Part shown: one piece after another, positions 7,372 to 16,117 of the stretch
How the letters are laid out: every line of letters starts with the position of its first letter
How positions within the stretch are numbered: the first letter of the stretch is position 1
Origin: Psychrobacter sp. DM4
GTDB taxonomy: Bacteria > Pseudomonadota > Gammaproteobacteria > Pseudomonadales > Moraxellaceae
Assembly: GCF_051307035.1 (NCBI RefSeq)
Contig: NZ_CP195536.1
Location: forward strand, 1,350,001 to 1,382,000
Length of the DNA: 32,000 nucleotides
Reading direction: 5' to 3'
Notes under the pieces: model-generated
Databases searched by the model: none
What the model was told of the DNA's origin: nothing
The model's input: only the letters and a program-made list of their open reading frames with translations
Position numbers and translations under genes: made by a program

Positions 7372-7510
7372 ATGGTGCCCGTTGACGAGTAATCGATTAC
7401 TATACATCATCATTAATCTGACTATATATTACAGTTAATAATTTTCTATCAACCACACCTGCCATACCTGTAACTCCCCTGTAGACCTGATATAATTCTA
7501 AATATCTTAC

Positions 7511-7540
7511 TGAACATTTATTTATTTTAGATTTTATAAT
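7511..7540 (+). promoter_or_regulatory. Candidate sigma70 promoter for hsdM-hsdS-X
   Basis: TGAACA (7511-7516), an 18-nt spacer and a perfect TATAAT (7535-7540) lie about 30 nt before the hsdM start. An alternative extended -10, TGaTATAAT, sits at 7488-7496. The region is AT-rich, so chance matches are plausible. Confidence 0.3.
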
Positions 7541-7569
7541 AGCATTCAACCTTGCCTATCAAACAAAAG

Positions 7570-9981
7570 ATGCCTTTTATGACCAAAAACTTCTCTCAAA
7601 CAGCGGCTTTCATCTGGTCTGTCGCTGATTTATTGCGCGGCGACTTTAAGCAATCTCAATACGGTCGTATCATCCTGCCATTCACACTACTGCGCCGCTT
7701 AGAGTGCGTATTATCAGAGACCAAAGCCGCTGTGGTTGCCGAAAACCAACGTATCGCTGATATGGGTCTGCCAGAGGAAGCGCAAGAGAAGTTCATCATA
7801 CGTGCCAGCAAGCGACCGTTCTACAATATCTCGCCCATGGACTTAAGCAAGATGGGTCAGAGTGATATCAAGGATAACCTCAACACTTACGTGCAATCAT
7901 TCTCAAAAGATGCGCGCGAGATATTTGAGCACTTCAAGTTTGAAGAGTTCATCGGGCAGCTCGCCGATGCTAACCTGCTATATAAAGTGGTGCAAAAGTT
8001 CGCCAATACTGATCTGAGTCCTGAGGCGATATCCAACCACGAAATGGGCTTTGTGTTTGAAGAGCTGATCCGCCGCTTTGCTGAAAGCTCAAACGAGACC
8101 GCAGGGGAGCACTTTACCCCGCGTGATATTGTACGCCTGACGACGTCACTGGTGTTTATGGAAGATGACAGTGTTCTGAGCAAGGAAGGTATTATTCGTA
8201 CCATTTATGACCCGACAGCAGGGACGGGCGGCTTTTTGTCCTCTGGTATGGAATACGTGCTAGAGCTCAACCCTGATGCGGTCATGCGTACCTATGGGCA
8301 AGAGCTAAATCCTGAGTCCTATGCCATCTGTAAAGCCGATATGCTGATAAAAGGGCAGGAAGTCAATAACATCAAGCTGGGCAATACCTTATCCAGTGAT
8401 CAACTGGTCGCGGAAAAGTTCGACTACATGCTGTCCAATCCGCCGTTTGGGGTAGATTGGAAAAAGATATCAGGTGAGATCAAAGACGAGCACGAGCAAA
8501 AAGGCTTTGACGGTCGATTTGGTGCAGGCTTGCCGCGCGTGTCTGATGGATCGCTATTGTTCCTGATGCATCTGATTAGCAAGCTGCAGAACACGACTGC
8601 CAATAGTGAACAGAGCCGCGCCAATGAGCACCACGGCAGCCGTATCGGTATCATCTTGAATGGCTCACCGCTATTCACGGGCGGCGCAGGTAGCGGCGAG
8701 AGTGAGATTCGCCGTTATATTCTTGAGGCGGATTTACTTGAGGCCATTATCGCCCTGCCTACCGATATGTTCTATAACACAGGTATCGCTACCTATGTAT
8801 GGGTGTTGAGCAATAAGAAAGCGCCTGAGCGTAAAGGTCACGTGCAATTGATCGACGGTAGCAATCTATACGGCAAGATGCGTAAGTCGCTCGGCTCAAA
8901 GCGTAATGAGATGAGCGATGAGGATATCAAAACCATTACTCGTAGTTTTGGTGACTTTGAAGTAGTTGACGCGCGTGTATTAGACAAGCCAGAGGAAGTG
9001 AAATCTAACCGTGGCCGTCAGTCTGCCAACCCCCATTCCAAAAGTGCCAGCTCACCTGCCAAGACCTTTGCCAGTAAGATATTTAAGACCCATGAGTTTG
9101 GCTATCGCCGCATCACCATTGAGCGTCCGCTCCGTCTATCCGCCCAGCTCTCTGACGATGCTATCGAAACCCTACGTTATGCGCCTAAACCGTTCGATAT
9201 GGTCATGCCAGCGCTATATGAGGCGTTTGGTAGCCAATGGACAAGCGTGGACGACTCTAAAAACTACGGCGATTTATCAGCGGTCACTATTGATGCCCGT
9301 GCGATGATTAAGGCCGACTTTAGCGAGCTAAAAGAGAAGCAAATCAAAGATGTGCTGGATACCAAACTCTGGCAAGACCAGCTTAAGATCATGACTAAAG
9401 CCAAGGCCTTGCAAGCAGCGATAGGTACAAGCCAATTCGATGATTTCAATGCGTTTGAAAAGGTGTTTAAGCAAGCGCTTAAAGATACTGATGCCAGTTT
9501 AGATCTTAGTCTTGATGCTAAGGAGAAAAAGCAGATTATCGATGCTATCACGTGGAAAAACCCTGAAGCAGAGCCTGTCATCAAAAAGACAGTCAAGGTG
9601 GCTAATCCGCTTTATGGTGCGTTTAGTTATAAGCCTACCGCGACTACTCAAAAAGCAGACAAGCCAGCCAAAATTGTAGAGTTCCAAACGGATAGCGACC
9701 TACGTGATTATGAAAATGTGCCGCTCAATCCTGAGGTGACCACCACTGAGCTGATTGAAAGTTACTTCGCCCGTGAAGTACAGCCGCATGTGCCTGATGC
9801 GTGGATCAATAGCGACAAGACCGATGCCATCGATGAAGAGGTCGGCATCGTCGGCTTTGAGATACCCTTTAACCGCCATTACTATGTCTATGAGCCACCG
9901 CGCGCGCTTGCTGATATCGATGCGGACTTAGACGCGGTCAGTAGCGAGATTATGCAGTTATTGGGTGAGGTGCATTCATAA
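7570..9981 (+). CDS. hsdM: Type I restriction-modification system, DNA methyltransferase subunit M (long form, about 800 aa)
   Basis: It has an HsdM N-terminal block ([32 protein letters not shown]), AdoMet motif I ([10 protein letters not shown]) and N6-adenine motif IV (NPPFG). The stop overlaps the hsdS start by 1 nt (TAATG). The start is ambiguous: the first ATG is 7570, a second is at 7579, and the ORF is open from TTG 7552. Confidence 0.93.
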
Positions 9982-11345
9982 TGGTGAAGTATCAGCAATA
10001 TGATGAGTATAAGGATTCTGAGGTTGAGTGGTTGGAAAAAGTGCCTAGCCATTGGCAGCCAGTTCCTATTAAATACTTAGCTTCAGAAAAAGACACACTA
10101 TTCTTGGATGGTGACTGGATAGAAAGTAAGGATATTTCTGATTCTGGCATTCGATATATTACTACTGGCAATGTTGGAGAAGGACAGTATAAAGAACAAG
10201 GAACTGGCTTTATTAGTGACCAAGTTTTTCAAAAGTTAAACTGTAGTGAGGTTTTTGAGCAGGATATTCTTATATCTAGACTGAATTTACCTATTGGTAG
10301 AGCTTGCCTTGTACCCAATTTAAATAACCGAATAGTGACTTCAGTAGATAATGTAATTTTGCGACCAGATATCATTTACTGTAAACGGTTTTTGGTACAT
10401 CTTTTTTCAAGTTCCGAGTATTTTCACAACACGGCTAACTTAGCTCGTGGTGCAACTATGCAAAGAATTAGCAGAGGTTTATTAGGGAATATAAGGATTT
10501 CTCTTCCTGAGAAAGAAGAGCAAGTTCAAATCGCCAACTTCCTCGACTTTGAGACCGCGCAGATCGATACGCTAATCGAAAAACAGCAAACTCTTATCCA
10601 ACTGTTAAAAGAAAAGCGCCAAGCCGTCATCAGTCATGCGGTGACTAAAGGCTTAAACCCTGACTCACCAATGAAAGATTCTGGGGTGGAGTGGTTGGGG
10701 GAAGTGCCTGAGCATTGGGAGATTATGGCAATATCAAAGCTAACTCAAAAAATCACTAATGGCTATGTTGGACCTACCCGAGATATTTTAGTACCGAATG
10801 GAGTGCCATACATACAAGCTACCCATATTAAACGTGGGAATGTGAACTTTGATGATGCATATTTCGTAAGAGAAGAATGGAGTAAGAAGCATTCAAAATC
10901 TATCTTAAGAGAGCAGGACGTATTAGTCGTTCAAACAGGCGCAGGTACTGGAGATATAGGTCTAGTTACAAGCAAAGAAGCAGGCTACAACTGCCATGCT
11001 CTAATTATTTTACAACCAAAAGCACATTTAATTTTAGGTGGGTTTTTGTCATTCATCCTTCAATCAGATTATGGCTATGCAATATTATACTCAATACGAA
11101 CAGGTGGCATGCACCCTCATCTAAATTGTGGAGAAGTTAAATACGTTAAAGTAAGTCTTCCTCCTATTGATGAACAACAGGAAATTATTTCGTACATTGA
11201 AAGAATGAAAAGTAAGTTTAATGATTTAATAGATAATGCAGAACGCGCTATTCAACTTATGCAAGAACGCCGCACCGCTTTAATATCTGCCGCGGTTACG
11301 GGTAAGATTGATGTGCGGGGTTGGGTTGCGCCCAAAAGCCGTTAA
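9981..11345 (+). CDS. hsdS: Type I restriction-modification system, specificity subunit S (two target-recognition domains)
   Basis: The half-structure is duplicated. DSEVEWLEKVPSHWQ and DSGVEWLGEVPEHWE precede each TRD. There are two conserved helical spacers: LPEKEEQVQIANFLDFETAQIDTLIEKQQTLIQLLKEKRQAVISHAVTKGL and LPPIDEQQEIISYIERMKSKFNDLI...RRTALISAAVTGKIDV. Confidence 0.9.
   Translation: MVKYQQYDEYKDSEVEWLEKVPSHWQPVPIKYLASEKDTLFLDGDWIESKDISDSGIRYITTGNVGEGQYKEQGTGFISDQVFQKLNCSEVFEQDILISRLNLPIGRACLVPNLNNRIVTSVDNVILRPDIIYCKRFLVHLFSSSEYFHNTANLARGATMQRISRGLLGNIRISLPEKEEQVQIANFLDFETAQIDTLIEKQQTLIQLLKEKRQAVISHAVTKGLNPDSPMKDSGVEWLGEVPEHWEIMAISKLTQKITNGYVGPTRDILVPNGVPYIQATHIKRGNVNFDDAYFVREEWSKKHSKSILREQDVLVVQTGAGTGDIGLVTSKEAGYNCHALIILQPKAHLILGGFLSFILQSDYGYAILYSIRTGGMHPHLNCGEVKYVKVSLPPIDEQQEIISYIERMKSKFNDLIDNAERAIQLMQERRTALISAAVTGKIDVRGWVAPKSR
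10014..10058 (+). repeat. hsdS internal direct repeat, copy 1 (pre-TRD1 conserved block)
   Basis: The 45-nt sequence gattctgaggttgagtggttggaaaaagtgcctagccattggcag matches 10677-10721 at roughly 36/45 positions. The offset is 663 nt (221 codons). Confidence 0.8.
10677..10721 (+). repeat. hsdS internal direct repeat, copy 2 (pre-TRD2 conserved block)
   Basis: gattctggggtggagtggttgggggaagtgcctgagcattgggag is the partner of 10014-10058. Confidence 0.8.
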
Positions 11346-11379
11346 AATAAATACAGAAAACAATAAAAGGAATTATAGG

Positions 11380-12102
11380 GTGAAAAAGTTTACCGTAGCA
11401 GCTTTATTAGGCGCAATAGCGGTTACCACTAGCGCCCAAGCCGAAGTCTATCACTGGCAAGATGAGCTATGCGATAATCGAGGCGAGTTTGATAATACAA
11501 AGTATAGCGCTAAGCAAATCGAAAACTCACATTTTGTCTTCGACCATTTAAATAGCTCAAATCTAAATAGCTTTTTTCCACCGATGGATATTAATGACTT
11601 AGATACGCTATCTATGACCGACCTAGAAACACTGACTGAAGAGTATAAACAAGTTAAGCATAATGTTGAACGACTTGATGTGGTGCCTGACGCAAAAGGT
11701 TATAAGCAAGAGTTGGTCAAGTCTATTGATGGGGAGTATAAACACAATAAGCTAACTATTTTGGCTTATTTAGAACCCATACAAGCTATGCGGCAGAGTC
11801 CATTGATGTGCAAGCAATACATCGAACCCTTTTTTCGTAACGAAACCGCCGTACAGGATAAATGGCAGCAGCTGGTTGAAAAACGCGCGTTAACAAATAG
11901 CTATGCCATGTCCCGTTATCAAGATGAGAAAGCCAGTAATCCTGCCAAGTATGCCAAAATTGACTTGATTACCTTTGGCTTTGGCAATTGCGTCAATGAT
12001 CAGGTCTATCATGCCGACTCCGAAAAAACCTATATCTATCGGCAACAACTGAATAAAATAGTGTTTGGTGAGAGTTTGACCAAGGTTTGTGCTGAGCCTT
12101 AG
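11380..12102 (+). CDS. Sec-exported protein of unknown function, third gene of the hsdM-hsdS transcription unit (here called X)
   Basis: The GTG at 11380 has AAGGAA 8-9 nt upstream and lies only 34 nt after the hsdS stop, with no hairpin between. The N-terminus MKKFTVAALLGAIAVTTSAQA/EV is a classic signal-peptidase I signal (basic n-region, hydrophobic core, AxA site). There is no lipobox Cys. The mature part has four Cys. I recognise no family by eye. The 241-codon ORF is in AT-rich DNA. Confidence 0.7.
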   Translation: MKKFTVAALLGAIAVTTSAQAEVYHWQDELCDNRGEFDNTKYSAKQIENSHFVFDHLNSSNLNSFFPPMDINDLDTLSMTDLETLTEEYKQVKHNVERLDVVPDAKGYKQELVKSIDGEYKHNKLTILAYLEPIQAMRQSPLMCKQYIEPFFRNETAVQDKWQQLVEKRALTNSYAMSRYQDEKASNPAKYAKIDLITFGFGNCVNDQVYHADSEKTYIYRQQLNKIVFGESLTKVCAEP

Positions 12103-12111
12103 TTTGCGTAG

Positions 12112-12160
12112 GCTGCGGCTTTAGCCCAGCAGTCAGGTTTTTTGCTAGGCTAAAGCCTAG
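12112..12160 (+). terminator. Cluster of alternative hairpins and a T-run after gene X (possible terminator or attenuator)
   Basis: Three structures overlap here. GCTGcGGC-TTTA-GCCCAGC (12112-12130) forms a hairpin. GGCTTTAGCC (12117-12126) is the exact reverse complement of GGCTAAAGCC (12148-12157), with a T6 run (12138-12143) between them. CTAGGC-TAAA-GCCTAG (12145-12160) is a separate local hairpin. These structures share arms, so they cannot all form at once. Confidence 0.35.
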
Positions 12161-12164
12161 TAGA

Positions 12165-12179
12165 GTGCATGTCATGCAC
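12165..12179. promoter_or_regulatory. Perfect palindrome upstream of hsdR (possible protein-binding site)
   Basis: GTGCATG-T-CATGCAC has 7-bp arms and a 1-nt spacer, about 140 nt upstream of the hsdR ATG. Confidence 0.3.
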
Positions 12180-12318
12180 CCACAAGATATAGGCTAAAAG
12201 TAAGATGAATCCTAATCAACAACTTAGTCAAAATTAAATACCGTATTGACGAGGCTTATCTAAAAGTTCGGTGCTTAAAAACCCTCTACACCAATAAACT
12301 AATAATAAGAACCATGCC

Positions 12319-15300
12319 ATGACTCAAACTAGCACTGCTACTAACGCACACAACGTTACCTACGAATCTGTCTTCCAAGCCGATATCGTCAGCCAAATGC
12401 AAACGCACGGCTGGCAACTGGGTACACCTAGCGGCTATACGGCAGAGACGGCACTATATGAGCAAGACGTGCTCGACTTTGTGCAGACCACCCAGCCGCA
12501 GGAATGGGAGAAGTTCTGCCGTACTCATCCTATCGACTCTGAGCGTCATTTTATCGCCGCATTGGTCAAGCAGCTGGGTAAGGCTGACGAACACTCAACT
12601 GATAGAGCCTCGCGCACTTATGGCACGCTTGGTGTCTTGCGTCATGGTCTCAAGATTCGTAACGCGCGCTTTAACTTATGCCAGTTCAAGCCTGAGCACA
12701 GCCTCAACCCTGCGACTATGGCACGCTACGAGGCCAATATCTGCCGTATCGTGTCTGAGGTTGTCTATAGTCCGCATATTAGTTCAAAAGACAGTCCTAA
12801 TAGCAAAGTCGCGAAGCGCAACCGTATCGATATTGTATTGTTCGTCAATGGCTTGCCCGTGGTGACGATGGAGCTAAAGTCGGAGTTTAAGCAAGCGGTA
12901 CAAAACGCGATTACTCAGTATAAGCGCACCCGCCTGCCAAAAGACCCTGACACGGGCAAACCTGAACCACTACTGACGTTTAAGCGCGGCGCACTAGTAC
13001 ACTTTGCGGTCAGTCAGTATGAAGTCTATATGACAACGAAGCTGGCAGGCGAGAACACTTACTTTTTACCCTTTAACAAAGGCACAGCCAGTGGCGGCGC
13101 GGGTAATGACGTGCCAGCAGATAGCAGCCGCTATGCAAGCGACTACCTATGGAATGACGTGCTCACCCCAGACAATTTATTGGCAATCCTCGGCCACTTT
13201 ATGCACTTACAGATCGAGGAAGAAGAGGACGTCATCGGGCTTAAGTCCAAAAAGGAAACTATGATGTTCCCGCGCTATCATCAGTGGGACGTTGTGACCA
13301 AATTGGTTAGTGCTGCTATTAGTGAAGGCGCTGGTCAAAGGTATTTGATTCAGCACAGCGCGGGATCAGGCAAGTCCAACTCTATCGCATGGACGGCGCA
13401 TCAGCTATCGACTCTTTACAATAGCGATGGTGATAAGCAGTTTCATTCGGTCATCGTCATCACCGATCGCACGATACTGGACGACCAGCTACAGGACACT
13501 ATCTATCAGTTTGAACATGCCGATGGCGTCGTCGGTAAGATCAGTAGAAATGAGGGTGACGGCTCAAAGTCTGAGCAACTCGCCAGCGCGCTCGTTAATG
13601 CGCAGCCGATCATCATCGTCACGATTCAAACCTTTCCGTTTGTCCTCAAAGCGATTGAAGACTCAAGCGTCCTCAAATCGCGCCGTTATGCCATCATCGC
13701 TGATGAGGCGCACTCGTCACAGACAGGCTCTACCGCGCGTCAGCTCAAAGAGGTCTTGGTCTCAGGTGAGATAAAGAAGAGCGAGGATAGCGCGTTATCT
13801 GATGAGGATGTCATCAATCAGACAATGGAGGCCAATCTTGCTGCGCGCCGTAGTAGTCCGAACCTCAGCTATTACGCCTTTACCGCCACGCCTAAACCCA
13901 AAACCATTGAGTTATTTGGGCGTTTGCCTGATCCTAGTTTGCCCGCCTCCAAACAGAACAAACCTGAGTCCTATCATGTCTATTCTATGCGCCAAGCGAT
14001 AGAGGAGGGTTTTATCTTAGATGTGCTCAAAAACTACACCAACTATAAAGTGGTCTATCAGCTCAAGCAAAAGCTCGCCGCTGATGATGAAGTGGATTCG
14101 CGCCGCGCCAAGATTAAGCTTAGTAACTGGGTACGTCTCCATGACTACAATATCGCGCAAAAGGTCAAAGTCATTATTGAACACTTTAATGACAACGTCA
14201 AAGGCTTACTAGGCGGGCAAGCTAAAGCGATGGTGGTAACGGGGTCTCGTAAAGAGGCGGTGCGTTATAAGATCGCCTTTGATAGCTATATTGCTGATAA
14301 CGGTTATCGCGGTATTAATGCGATGGTTGCCTTCTCAGGAGAGGTGACTTTTGATGACCATGATTTACAAAATAGCAGTGACCCTGATAGTAGCGGGCTA
14401 ATTCCTGATTTGGTCGGCGAAAAGTTCACTGAACATAATATGAATATTGGTCTAAAAAAACGTGACCTACGTACTGCCTTTGATAGTGACGATTATCAAG
14501 TAATGCTAGTGGCGAACAAGTTTCAGACGGGCTTTGATCAGCCCAAACTGTGTGCGATGTATGTCGATAAGAAGTTAGCAGGTGTCGATTGTGTGCAAAC
14601 CTTGTCACGGCTTAATCGCACTTATAAAGGTAAAGCGGAGAGTGGTACCTTTGTGCTCGATTTCTTTAACGATCCTGACGATATCTTAGCCGCCTTTCAG
14701 CCGTATTATGAGACTGCGAGCTTGGCGGATGTGTCTGATCCCGATCAGATTTATGACCTTTATGAGAGACTATGTGCACCTCAAATATTTTTGTGGCATG
14801 AAGTTGAGCAGTTCGTTAGCGCCTTTTATAGTAAGAATAAATCTAACGCCACCCTAAGTAACATCTGTAAGCCTGCGGTTGAGCGCTGGCAAAAGCAATA
14901 TCTTGAGGCGCGTACACAAGCAAAGCACGCCAAAATGATGCTTGAGGAAACCAAAACGACAGGTAATGTGGTACTGATTACTAATGCTGAGAACGACTAC
15001 AAAGGCTTTAAGACCAAGCAAGACGAGCTTGAGATATTCAAAAAGGATTTAGGTACTTTTACCCGCCAGTATGAATTTATGTCGCAGATTGTCGATTATG
15101 ACAGCAAGGATCTTGAGAAGCTTAGCCTATACGCCCGTAACCTACAGCCGCTATTGCGTGAGAGCGTCAGTGATGAGGACGATATCGACTTGAGTAATAT
15201 CGTGATGAGTCATTACCGTGTCTCAAAGCTCTATCAGCAAGACCTCAAGCTACAAGAGAGTAGCGGTGAGCTTGACGCGGGCGGCGGTGCTGGTACGGCT

Positions 15301-15627
15301 AAGCCTAAGGACAAAAAAGAAGAGCTACTATCGCAAGTCATCACTAAGCTAAACGAGGTGTTTGCAGGCGAGGACTTTACGGATAAAGATAAAGTTAATT
15401 TTATGAATACCATCTGGGATAAAGTCACTGAGAACGAGATCGTAGTCAAGCAGTTCACCAATAACAGTGTTGATCAGATTATGCTAGGTGGTTACCCAAA
15501 TGCTGCTGAGGACGCTATGTTTGATGCTAAGGGCACGTTTGAGAGTATGACCATGCACTTATTGTCTAACCCAAAACAGTTTAAGACGTTTATTCGGTTG
15601 ATGCTTGATACGAAGTTAAGTGCTTAA
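12319..15627 (+). CDS. hsdR: Type I restriction-modification system, restriction/translocase subunit R
   Basis: It has the PD-(D/E)xK nuclease block RIDIVLFVNGLPVVTMELKSE. SF2 helicase motifs are present: QHSAGSGKS (Walker A), IADEAHSSQ (DEAH), FQTGFDQP and QTLSRLNR (motif VI). At 1102 aa it is separated from gene X by a 216-nt structured spacer, consistent with having its own promoter. Confidence 0.95.
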   Translation: MTQTSTATNAHNVTYESVFQADIVSQMQTHGWQLGTPSGYTAETALYEQDVLDFVQTTQPQEWEKFCRTHPIDSERHFIAALVKQLGKADEHSTDRASRTYGTLGVLRHGLKIRNARFNLCQFKPEHSLNPATMARYEANICRIVSEVVYSPHISSKDSPNSKVAKRNRIDIVLFVNGLPVVTMELKSEFKQAVQNAITQYKRTRLPKDPDTGKPEPLLTFKRGALVHFAVSQYEVYMTTKLAGENTYFLPFNKGTASGGAGNDVPADSSRYASDYLWNDVLTPDNLLAILGHFMHLQIEEEEDVIGLKSKKETMMFPRYHQWDVVTKLVSAAISEGAGQRYLIQHSAGSGKSNSIAWTAHQLSTLYNSDGDKQFHSVIVITDRTILDDQLQDTIYQFEHADGVVGKISRNEGDGSKSEQLASALVNAQPIIIVTIQTFPFVLKAIEDSSVLKSRRYAIIADEAHSSQTGSTARQLKEVLVSGEIKKSEDSALSDEDVINQTMEANLAARRSSPNLSYYAFTATPKPKTIELFGRLPDPSLPASKQNKPESYHVYSMRQAIEEGFILDVLKNYTNYKVVYQLKQKLAADDEVDSRRAKIKLSNWVRLHDYNIAQKVKVIIEHFNDNVKGLLGGQAKAMVVTGSRKEAVRYKIAFDSYIADNGYRGINAMVAFSGEVTFDDHDLQNSSDPDSSGLIPDLVGEKFTEHNMNIGLKKRDLRTAFDSDDYQVMLVANKFQTGFDQPKLCAMYVDKKLAGVDCVQTLSRLNRTYKGKAESGTFVLDFFNDPDDILAAFQPYYETASLADVSDPDQIYDLYERLCAPQIFLWHEVEQFVSAFYSKNKSNATLSNICKPAVERWQKQYLEARTQAKHAKMMLEETKTTGNVVLITNAENDYKGFKTKQDELEIFKKDLGTFTRQYEFMSQIVDYDSKDLEKLSLYARNLQPLLRESVSDEDDIDLSNIVMSHYRVSKLYQQDLKLQESSGELDAGGGAGTAKPKDKKEELLSQVITKLNEVFAGEDFTDKDKVNFMNTIWDKVTENEIVVKQFTNNSVDQIMLGGYPNAAEDAMFDAKGTFESMTMHLLSNPKQFKTFIRLMLDTKLSA

Positions 15628-15853: not shown

Positions 15854-16117
15854 TCAATTTACAGTAGCTGTATCATCATCAAGTAAAGGAGTTATAGGAG
15901 TGATGACATAATCGTGTTGAACATCTGGCGCACTATCTACTGGTTTTTGAGTAGTTTTAGGGAGCTGATGCTGCTTAATTTGAGCTTGATTGCGTTTTTT
16001 GACCTCGTCAATCAGCTTTGATAGTTGTTCATTATCTTTCTCAATATCGGCGTCTAACTGCTGAGTGTCTTGGGTTTGCTTTTTTATAAAGATTTGACTA
16101 TATAAAAATGCATACAT
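15854..16117 (-). CDS. Hypothetical small protein (87 aa) with a predicted coiled-coil/charged centre and a Pro-rich tail
   Basis: An 87-codon ORF that stays open in about 35 percent GC DNA is unlikely by chance, because stop codons are AT-rich. The sequence has a heptad-like charged stretch, QQLDADIEKDNEQLSKLIDEVKKRNQAQIKQHQ. There is no convincing Shine-Dalgarno and I recognise no family. Confidence 0.3.
   Translation of the reverse strand: MYAFLYSQIFIKKQTQDTQQLDADIEKDNEQLSKLIDEVKKRNQAQIKQHQLPKTTQKPVDSAPDVQHDYVITPITPLLDDDTATVN

Follow-up and report, generated by a model that had tools for sequence, protein, structure and literature searches.

The stretch analysed here (the window: 32,000 nt of Psychrobacter sp. 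DM4, NCBI RefSeq assembly GCF_051307035.1, contig NZ_CP195536.1, positions 1,350,001 to 1,382,000 of the forward strand) contains a type I restriction–modification (R-M) locus in which a gene of no recognised family, here termed X, lies between hsdS and hsdR. The evidence points to X as cargo carried in the hsdS–hsdR gap, and not as a part of the restriction enzyme. The features of the locus are as follows.

7511–7540 (+), sigma-70-like promoter match (consensus match, 10/12)
7579–9981 (+), hsdM (Pfam HsdM_N, 1.6e-27; N6_Mtase, 7.5e-56)
9981–11345 (+), hsdS, specificity subunit (Methylase_S, 4e-21; 39.0% GC)
11258–11345 (+), conserved 3' end of hsdS, the putative left homology arm travelling with the X cassette (jump in identity to related loci L004 and L034)
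11346–11379 (+), hsdS–X spacer with the AAAGGA ribosome-binding site at 11366–11371
11380–11442 (+), signal peptide of X, residues 1–21, MKKFTVAALLGAIAVTTSAQA, predicted cleavage after AQA
11443–12102 (+), mature X, residues 22–240 and stop codon (AlphaFold model, alignment, dN/dS)
12117–12157 (+), strong hairpin after the X stop codon (folding energy, both arms located)
12319–15627 (+), hsdR, the first ~80–100 nt being the putative right homology arm, part of a near-identical exchanged tract

The flanking genes are typical of a type I system by Pfam: HsdM has HsdM_N and N6_Mtase domains, HsdS has Methylase_S, and HsdR has HSDR_N, SWI2_SNF2/ResIII and T1R_D3. The hsdM open reading frame (ORF) is open from TTG 7552, and homology to orthologues in tblastn alignments begins at residue 10, the ATG at 7579.

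X occupies an ORF at 11380–12102 on the + strand, with a GTG start, 240 codons and a stop (241 codons in all), giving a product of 240 aa. The AAAGGA Shine–Dalgarno sequence lies just ahead of the GTG. The program-made ORF list also offers a longer form starting at TTG 11308, overlapping hsdS; as all homologues begin at the MK(A/K)xTVAALL position, and the TTG has no support among them, 11380 is taken as the true start. The closest database homologue (P0001, 97% identity) is recorded at 263 aa, gene callers having used an upstream in-frame TTG that overlaps hsdS; this start is probably mis-called.

The gene hsdS ends at 11345, which leaves a spacer of 34 nt that is kept across the X paralogue types. 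Within this spacer there is neither a significant hairpin (z = −0.67) nor a site resembling a terminator or promoter, and no promoter-like site was found in the 216-nt spacer between X and hsdR. The best promoter match of the locus is upstream of hsdM (TGAACA-18-TATAAT, 10/12 matches to the consensus, and a consensus match only), and the transcript carrying X likely starts there. Together, the empty spacers and the position of the promoter make it the simplest reading that X is read from the hsdMS transcript, co-transcription being predicted. A first-pass annotation, made from the sequence alone, had described a 241-codon gene 34 nt past hsdS, with no hairpin parting the two, and this description held in each respect. 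The same annotation had X as more AT-rich than hsdM and hsdR, which is correct (40.9% GC as against 48.4% and 47.4%); however, hsdS, at 39.0%, is equally AT-rich.

A strong hairpin, absent from the first-pass annotation, begins 15 nt past the X stop codon. Its stem of 15 bp contains one mismatch, its 11-nt loop is U-rich, and it lacks a trailing U-tract; the surrounding 106 nt (12095–12200) fold at −40.6 kcal/mol (z = −3.1). Both arms were found, are unique in the window and are 100% identical in L004 and L034. The hairpin could be a terminator, an attenuator or an element that stabilises the transcript. A scan of 11000–12600 against Rfam gave a sub-threshold chance match only.

The N-terminus of X has the features of a Sec signal peptide cleaved by signal peptidase I (SPI): a positively charged n-region (MKK), a hydrophobic h-region within the expected 10–15 residues (FTVAALLGAIAVTT, Kyte–Doolittle peak 2.4–2.6) and small residues at −3 and −1 (AXA), with the cleavage site at SAQA/EV. 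Among 68 diverse homologues, which are only 22–74% identical to X of the window, 67 have an N-terminal signal; 38 of these are SPI-like and at least 29 have a lipobox. In the latter the lipobox Cys is followed by a low-complexity linker, and the Bacteroidota relatives are lipoproteins. X is thus predicted to be a Sec-exported protein that carries a cleavable signal peptide, in agreement with the annotated cleavage before EV, which stands as a prediction.

The four Cys residues attributed to the mature protein (31, 144, 204 and 237) are indeed present, and are invariant or found in at least 90% of the 68 homologues. They probably form two disulfides that staple the mature protein; the most likely pairs, a guess from the layout of the secondary structure in the model, are C31–C237 and C144–C204. 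Near-invariant positions in the family are limited to W, C, G, L, Y, P, A, N and F, with no catalytic-type residue conserved, and a C-(D/A)EP motif is found at the C-terminus. The median isoelectric point (pI) of the mature proteins is 5.35. The AlphaFold2 model is of high confidence, with a mean predicted local distance difference test score (pLDDT) of 93.8 and a predicted TM score of 0.86; pLDDT is 56–62 for residues 1–20 and at least 93 for most of the rest, so that only the signal peptide is of low confidence. The model has an N-terminal beta-hairpin (21–38), an all-alpha helical bundle and a short C-terminal strand. From these properties we infer that mature X is a non-enzymatic, acidic (pI ~5.3), periplasmic alpha-helical binder. 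Binding of DNA in the periplasm was also considered and was rejected because the mature protein is acidic.

Sequence searches place X in a family that is not confined to Psychrobacter. A collection of 5.8 billion proteins yielded 164 homologues, mostly from Psychrobacter and 58–97% identical, and 188 clusters at 50% identity, mostly full-length (240–285 aa), came from an exhaustive HMMER search of 1.84 billion cluster representatives. By sequence similarity, the family extends beyond the genus and across phyla. The first-pass annotation recognised no family, and the searches bear this out. X gave sub-threshold noise only against Pfam and NCBIfam, while its three neighbours match Hsd domains strongly; a Pfam scan of the 68 relatives found no family (E up to 0.1). 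There was no match to a PADLOC family or to PHROGs, none between an X profile and the sequences in the PDB, and, by tblastn, none on plasmids or in 50,697 phage records. Foldseek comparison of the model with the PDB and with viral structures (BFVD) gave a best E of 0.37 and TM of at most 0.22. In UniRef, two homologues (P0060 and P0114) are named DUF1311 (LprI-like) and DUF4124, but these names were not reproduced, as neither protein matches these Pfam families at E up to 10. We take X to be helical like DUF1311, and its N-terminal Y-x-W-x-D hairpin to resemble DUF4124, although Pfam finds neither family. X and the two DUF families are alike in being periplasmic and Cys-containing, but none of the 68 members of the X family has a Pfam match to either.

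Pairwise dN/dS (the ratio of nonsynonymous to synonymous divergence) is 0.09–0.23 for X; in the same pairs of genomes, hsdM and hsdR give 0.06–0.09 (hsdM of L004 was left out as a frame artefact). X is clearly under purifying selection. A chance ORF or decaying remnant between hsdS and hsdR might be suspected from the AT-richness relative to hsdM and hsdR, the GTG start and the lack of a known family, but such an explanation is refuted by the conservation data, and its probability is negligible: full-length homologues number in the hundreds, come from different phyla and keep the Cys residues and motifs, the dN/dS values are low, the predicted fold is very confident and the ribosome-binding site is a proper one.

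The distribution of X was examined in 25 Psychrobacter loci, assembled from a scan of one genome per species (26 loci) and three loci from an exact-protein look-up. The scan used a Psychrobacter-only alignment, diverse alignments lacking a stretch that was conserved enough, and the survey is consequently biased to close relatives. X lies between hsdS and hsdR in 20 of the 25 loci, in which hsdM and hsdR are 75–91% and 69–89% identical, respectively, to those of the window. Nine metagenomic loci have the same arrangement, and in L119 a copy only 42% identical to X lies between the C-terminus of hsdS and an hsdR that is 73% identical. The linkage of X to hsd genes is therefore not a one-off.

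In the X-carrying Psychrobacter loci the gap measures 845 to 7,490 bp, with between one and three paralogues of X inside it, and X is the gene directly after hsdS in 14 of 21 loci (the window counted). In Psychrobacter coccoides the X–hsdR spacer is only 43 nt. At a cut-off of 72% identity there are at least nine X subtypes, mutually 42–70% identical, and up to three different subtypes occur in a single gap. Other genes share the gaps with X, namely those for exported Sel1-repeat proteins (14 copies in 10 loci), a cytoplasmic protein of 205–206 aa without a family (seven loci), a membrane protein of ~126 aa (seven loci) and a TPR-like protein (five loci). One string recurs: one or more X paralogues, the 205–206-aa protein, an exported Sel1-repeat protein of 450–515 aa and the ~126-aa membrane protein (L003, 10001–14429; L013, 12967–17369; L015–L018; L054, 5328–8926). 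Part of it, made up of Sel1 genes, X and the 205-aa gene, is also found in L024 (5140–12926), away from any hsd genes. This string may be a multi-gene module in its own right.

X occurs without hsd genes in the remaining five Psychrobacter loci. In L008 and L014 it is found at one common chromosomal site, between a gene for a 518-aa membrane protein and a gene for a 286-aa protein. In L020 it adjoins an insertion sequence (IS) 630-like transposase gene, and in L023 it is near prophage-like genes, the sole non-hsd copy so placed. In L024, X is split by an IS605-type tnpB and is accompanied by Sel1-repeat genes and the 205-aa gene; the halves lie at 10001–10381 and 11895–12269, and the insert is a 435-aa ORF that appears, from a reading of its N-terminal sequence, to be IS200/IS605-type TnpB-like.

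Conversely, hsd loci without X were surveyed in a metagenome scan seeded with the HsdR N-terminus (80 loci). Among 21 informative loci with hsdR at least 83% identical, X is present in nine and absent from 12. The latter have no insert (L035, with a 68-nt gap), a short Sel1 protein, Abi_2, Mrr_cat, an AAA_15/AAA_21 ATPase with a 321-aa partner, a Ser/Thr kinase, a KAP NTPase or cargo without an assigned family. In L051 (2172–4552) the partner of the ATPase has no Pfam match, and the layout is like that of PARIS or OLD-type systems. The kinase is a protein of 517–519 aa (L040, 1217–2776; L057, 4646–6199), and the KAP NTPase has 738 aa (L055, 1488–3704). About 50 further loci have hsdR at 65–72% identity; none contains X, hsdS mostly abuts hsdR with gaps of 12–95 nt, and a few carry RhuM, DUF1016 or DUF4145 in the slot.

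The hsdS–hsdR slot of this hsd lineage is thus a hotspot for defence cargo. This agrees with the view of the gap as a docking site for such genes taken in the first-pass annotation, with Abi_2, RhuM, Mrr_cat, AAA_15/AAA_21, kinase, KAP NTPase, DUF1016 and DUF4145 genes all present in related loci. X is the most frequent occupant of the slot in Psychrobacter, but it is optional.

Comparison of synonymous divergence (dS) indicates that X and the hsd genes have separate histories. Between the window and L004 or L006, dS is 0.07–0.11 for X and 1.3–1.6 for hsdR in the same pairs, and the X cassette has therefore been exchanged independently of hsdM and hsdR. A tract of near-100% identity starts at ~11258, within the terminal 90 nt of hsdS, takes in X and the hairpin and stops at ~12400, in the first 80–100 nt of hsdR; the identity of the window to L004 and L034 jumps to 84–100% from 11258. 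Remnants of the same gene ends are found within the gaps. In L004 (9833–10011), a 3' remnant of hsdS with the same stop codon lies between the first and second X genes and is followed by an identical 34-nt leader, and a C-terminal fragment of hsdS is present downstream of X in metagenomic loci L037, L043, L045 and L051. Fragments of the hsdR 5' end occur inside the gap in L022 (7658–7972), L040 (941–1141) and L018 (13375–13602). The dS contrast, the identical tract and the remnants together form a footprint of recombination on the gene ends, by which X cassettes are shown, at the level of sequence, to be swapped and stacked by homologous recombination, for which the 3' end of hsdS and the 5' end of hsdR, both conserved, provide the arms.

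The hsd genes themselves also vary in location. Homology of the window to other genomes is limited to approximately 7443–15627; the flanks in the window are nasA/cobA on one side and aminotransferase/GntR genes on the other, whereas hsd adjoins SIR2 and adenosine deaminase genes in L001–L003. The whole hsdM-to-hsdR unit is therefore at a different chromosomal site in the window than in L001–L003. No direct repeats of 11 bp or longer flank the hsd island.

X neither forms part of the restriction enzyme nor regulates it, since it is optional cargo, has a history separate from those of hsdM and hsdR, and is also found outside R-M loci. It has no homology to an Hsd subunit, it is not always present with an orthologous system, and it is predicted to be exported, not cytoplasmic. 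It had been suggested that X is an envelope-level factor for phage exclusion or sensing that works with the type I R-M system, combining a block to entry in the periplasm with DNA cutting in the cytoplasm. There are grounds for such a suggestion: X follows hsdS in the operon without an intervening signal and is within 43 nt of hsdR in P. coccoides, its linkage to this hsd lineage is strong and long-lived, bona fide anti-phage genes occupy the slot in sister loci, and an embedded gene that cooperates with its host R-M system has a precedent in PrrC of EcoprrI (PMC12707154). However, X is neither needed by nor limited to hsd loci, as seen in the 12 of 21 close-hsdR loci without X, the five of 25 X loci without hsd and the decoupled dS values. 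Moreover, it is not evident how a soluble protein of the periplasm, its signal cleaved, could signal to a cytoplasmic enzyme, no relatives were found in phage or prophage genomes, the usual home of exclusion proteins, and the distant homologues are in non-defence contexts. Functional coupling of X to restriction is unsupported, and this explanation is judged improbable.

That X is an autonomous cargo gene can be stated with considerable confidence. The further step, that this exported cargo gene of the hsd hotspot has a protective role in the periplasm, is the interpretation favoured here, but only tentatively, and it falls somewhat short of an even chance. X would then neutralize or block, from outside, an aggressor that acts on the envelope, either a periplasm-targeted bacterial toxin or a phage component, and would serve as a shield of the orphan-immunity or inhibitor-like type. 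The divergent paralogues that share a gap would then differ in specificity, and what the location would offer is mobilization and expression together with a defence operon, as opposed to biochemical cooperation with HsdMSR. A protective periplasmic binder is favoured because of the accessory distribution, the arrays of diverged paralogues, the recent exchange, the association with IS and prophage-like elements and the co-occurrence with Sel1-repeat proteins. In addition, a Sel1-repeat protein, Sel1E, is a type VI secretion system (T6SS) immunity protein by experiment (PMC7108748), and there is a description of hotspots in which interbacterial and anti-phage arsenals are mixed (bioRxiv 10.64898/2026.08.01.741415).

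Several observations weigh against a protective role. No toxin gene (Rhs, VgrG, PAAR or CdiA-like) lies beside any X copy in the ~40 loci inspected. No solved immunity protein or inhibitor resembles X in sequence or fold, and the Psychrobacter Sel1 proteins, compared with solved structures, gave generic Sel1 matches only, with no specific likeness to known immunity proteins. Export, disulfides and co-transcription are all predicted. Finally, the distant homologues are single-copy genes in housekeeping synteny, which fits a physiological role in the envelope as well as a protective one, and they caution against assuming a defence role for X.

These distant homologues, from Bacteroidota and Acidobacteriota (22–35% identity), are single genes outside R-M loci. 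In Acidobacteriota, the homologue is by uvrC-sua5-PMT in three contigs (L026, 9962–12572; L031, 8001–11251; L114, 1157–3720), where uvrC is the direct neighbour in two and a single gene intervenes in L031; this setting is stable and non-mobile. A Pedobacter homologue adjoins ligD and a usp gene. In Rufibacter sp. LB8 (L030, 6448–8843), a 280-aa homologue is translationally coupled to batA, overlapping its stop codon by 4 nt, within a MoxR/DUF58/VWA (Bat) operon, roughly at what is presumably the position of BatC, a TPR protein. This hints at an ancestral link of the family to the Bat/VWA envelope complex. Other distant homologues are among miscellaneous genes. It had been reasoned that homologues in conserved housekeeping contexts would count against an envelope-level factor coupled to the R-M system; this is what was found for the distant homologues, but not for the Psychrobacter copies, which are mostly in hsd gaps.

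X could alternatively be a physiological hitch-hiker. It would then be an envelope factor of an ordinary kind, periplasmic or a lipoprotein, with a role in structure, stress or redox, for instance, which the hsd gap acquired in an ancestor of Psychrobacter and which was later duplicated and shuffled with no role in conflict. The solitary distant homologues in conserved neighbourhoods (uvrC-sua5-PMT, ligD/usp and batA) speak for such an origin, as do the subtype shared at the same chromosomal site by L008 and L014, the clearly purifying selection and the lack of PADLOC or PHROG matches. In Psychrobacter, however, the family is accessory, with only 26 loci in the species-level genome collection, and it is overwhelmingly limited to a slot that otherwise holds defence genes. 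A housekeeping factor would be expected as a single copy at a fixed position, whereas X occurs in arrays of strongly diverged paralogues and has been exchanged recently between lineages, with its hsd linkage kept down to 42% identity. A hitch-hiker of this kind is a possibility that we consider unlikely, but one to be taken seriously. The unrelated passenger offered in the first-pass annotation as an alternative to coupling was the closer of the two to the evidence; the pattern, though, is more like that of cargo under selection and diversification than that of a random passenger.

The protective reading has a broader form. X may found an undescribed family of exported, disulfide-stapled helical proteins, with a predicted fold that has no solved relative, which act as periplasmic shields against phage entry or periplasm-targeted toxins and are carried, with exported Sel1-repeat proteins, as recombination-swappable cassettes in a type I R-M operon of Psychrobacter and related Moraxellaceae. 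In this full form the proposal is speculative and rather doubtful.

Other features of the neighbouring genes were recorded. HsdM (7579–9981) has ~800 aa, and its Pfam methylase domains stop near residue 473; the C-terminal ~330 residues have no family match, yet are conserved in all orthologues. The HsdR C-terminus (residues 1001–1075; 15319–15543 in the window) has a sub-threshold Pfam match to colicin/pyocin DNase (E = 0.009, 16.6 bits compared with a cut-off of 27), which is probably noise. Directly downstream of hsdR, on the opposite strand, there is an 87-aa ORF (15854–16117, −; 36% GC, GC at third codon positions 27%). It lies at the edge of the region common to other genomes and could be island-border cargo or a chance ORF.

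To our knowledge, guilt by association with defence islands has so far brought out almost only cytoplasmic or membrane-embedded systems. The commonest cargo of the type I R-M hotspot described here is instead a soluble, predicted-exported protein of an unannotated family with no detectable structural relative, travelling with exported Sel1-repeat proteins. If X protects the envelope, a periplasmic class would be added to the defence and immunity repertoire, for which the swappable subtypes would provide a clean test system, and a periplasmic layer of defence would be physically nested in a cytoplasmic one. If X is a plain envelope protein, the locus cautions against reading a defence function from residence in a hotspot by itself. 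Irrespective of the function of X, the remnants of the hsdS 3' and hsdR 5' ends show how the cargo of an operon is stacked and exchanged by homologous recombination on conserved ends of genes.

Among known systems, guardians of the PrrC/RloC type have an ABC-ATPase-like N domain and an anticodon-nuclease C domain and are cytoplasmic. The nearest known parallel to X is that of accessory genes embedded in type I loci. Inserts of the PrrC, RloC, Abi and RhuM types share its niche, being same-strand genes placed among the hsd genes within the operon, and PrrC in EcoprrI is the documented case of a gene embedded in a type I R-M locus (PMC12707154). X has this position in the hsd locus, but no ATPase or nuclease domain was found in it. 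These inserts are cytoplasmic enzymes or NTPases, whereas X is predicted to be exported, has no enzyme-like conserved residues and has no homology to them; unlike embedded accessory genes of R-M systems, it is also found outside R-M loci.

Prophage envelope proteins that mediate superinfection exclusion or block entry, such as Sp of T4, Llp of T5 and Cor, resemble X in being small, fast-evolving, exported or lipoprotein components of the envelope. They are, however, prophage-encoded, and X has no match in the 50,697 phage records, PHROGs or BFVD.

X also resembles the periplasmic immunity proteins of T6SS and polymorphic toxins. X has in common with these a signal peptide, the apparent character of a small, non-enzymatic binder and tandem diverged paralogues, and it shares with immunity arrays an accessory, mobile distribution and the co-occurrence with exported Sel1-repeat proteins. 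It differs in having no adjacent cognate toxin and no sequence or fold match, and in the single-copy distant homologues with housekeeping synteny. X is not classed as an immunity gene because of two of these differences, the absence of an adjacent toxin and of homology to a known immunity family. Orphan immunity arrays without toxins exist, and the missing toxin neighbour lowers the probability of an immunity function but does not exclude it. By analogy, X would work most like an orphan periplasmic immunity gene.

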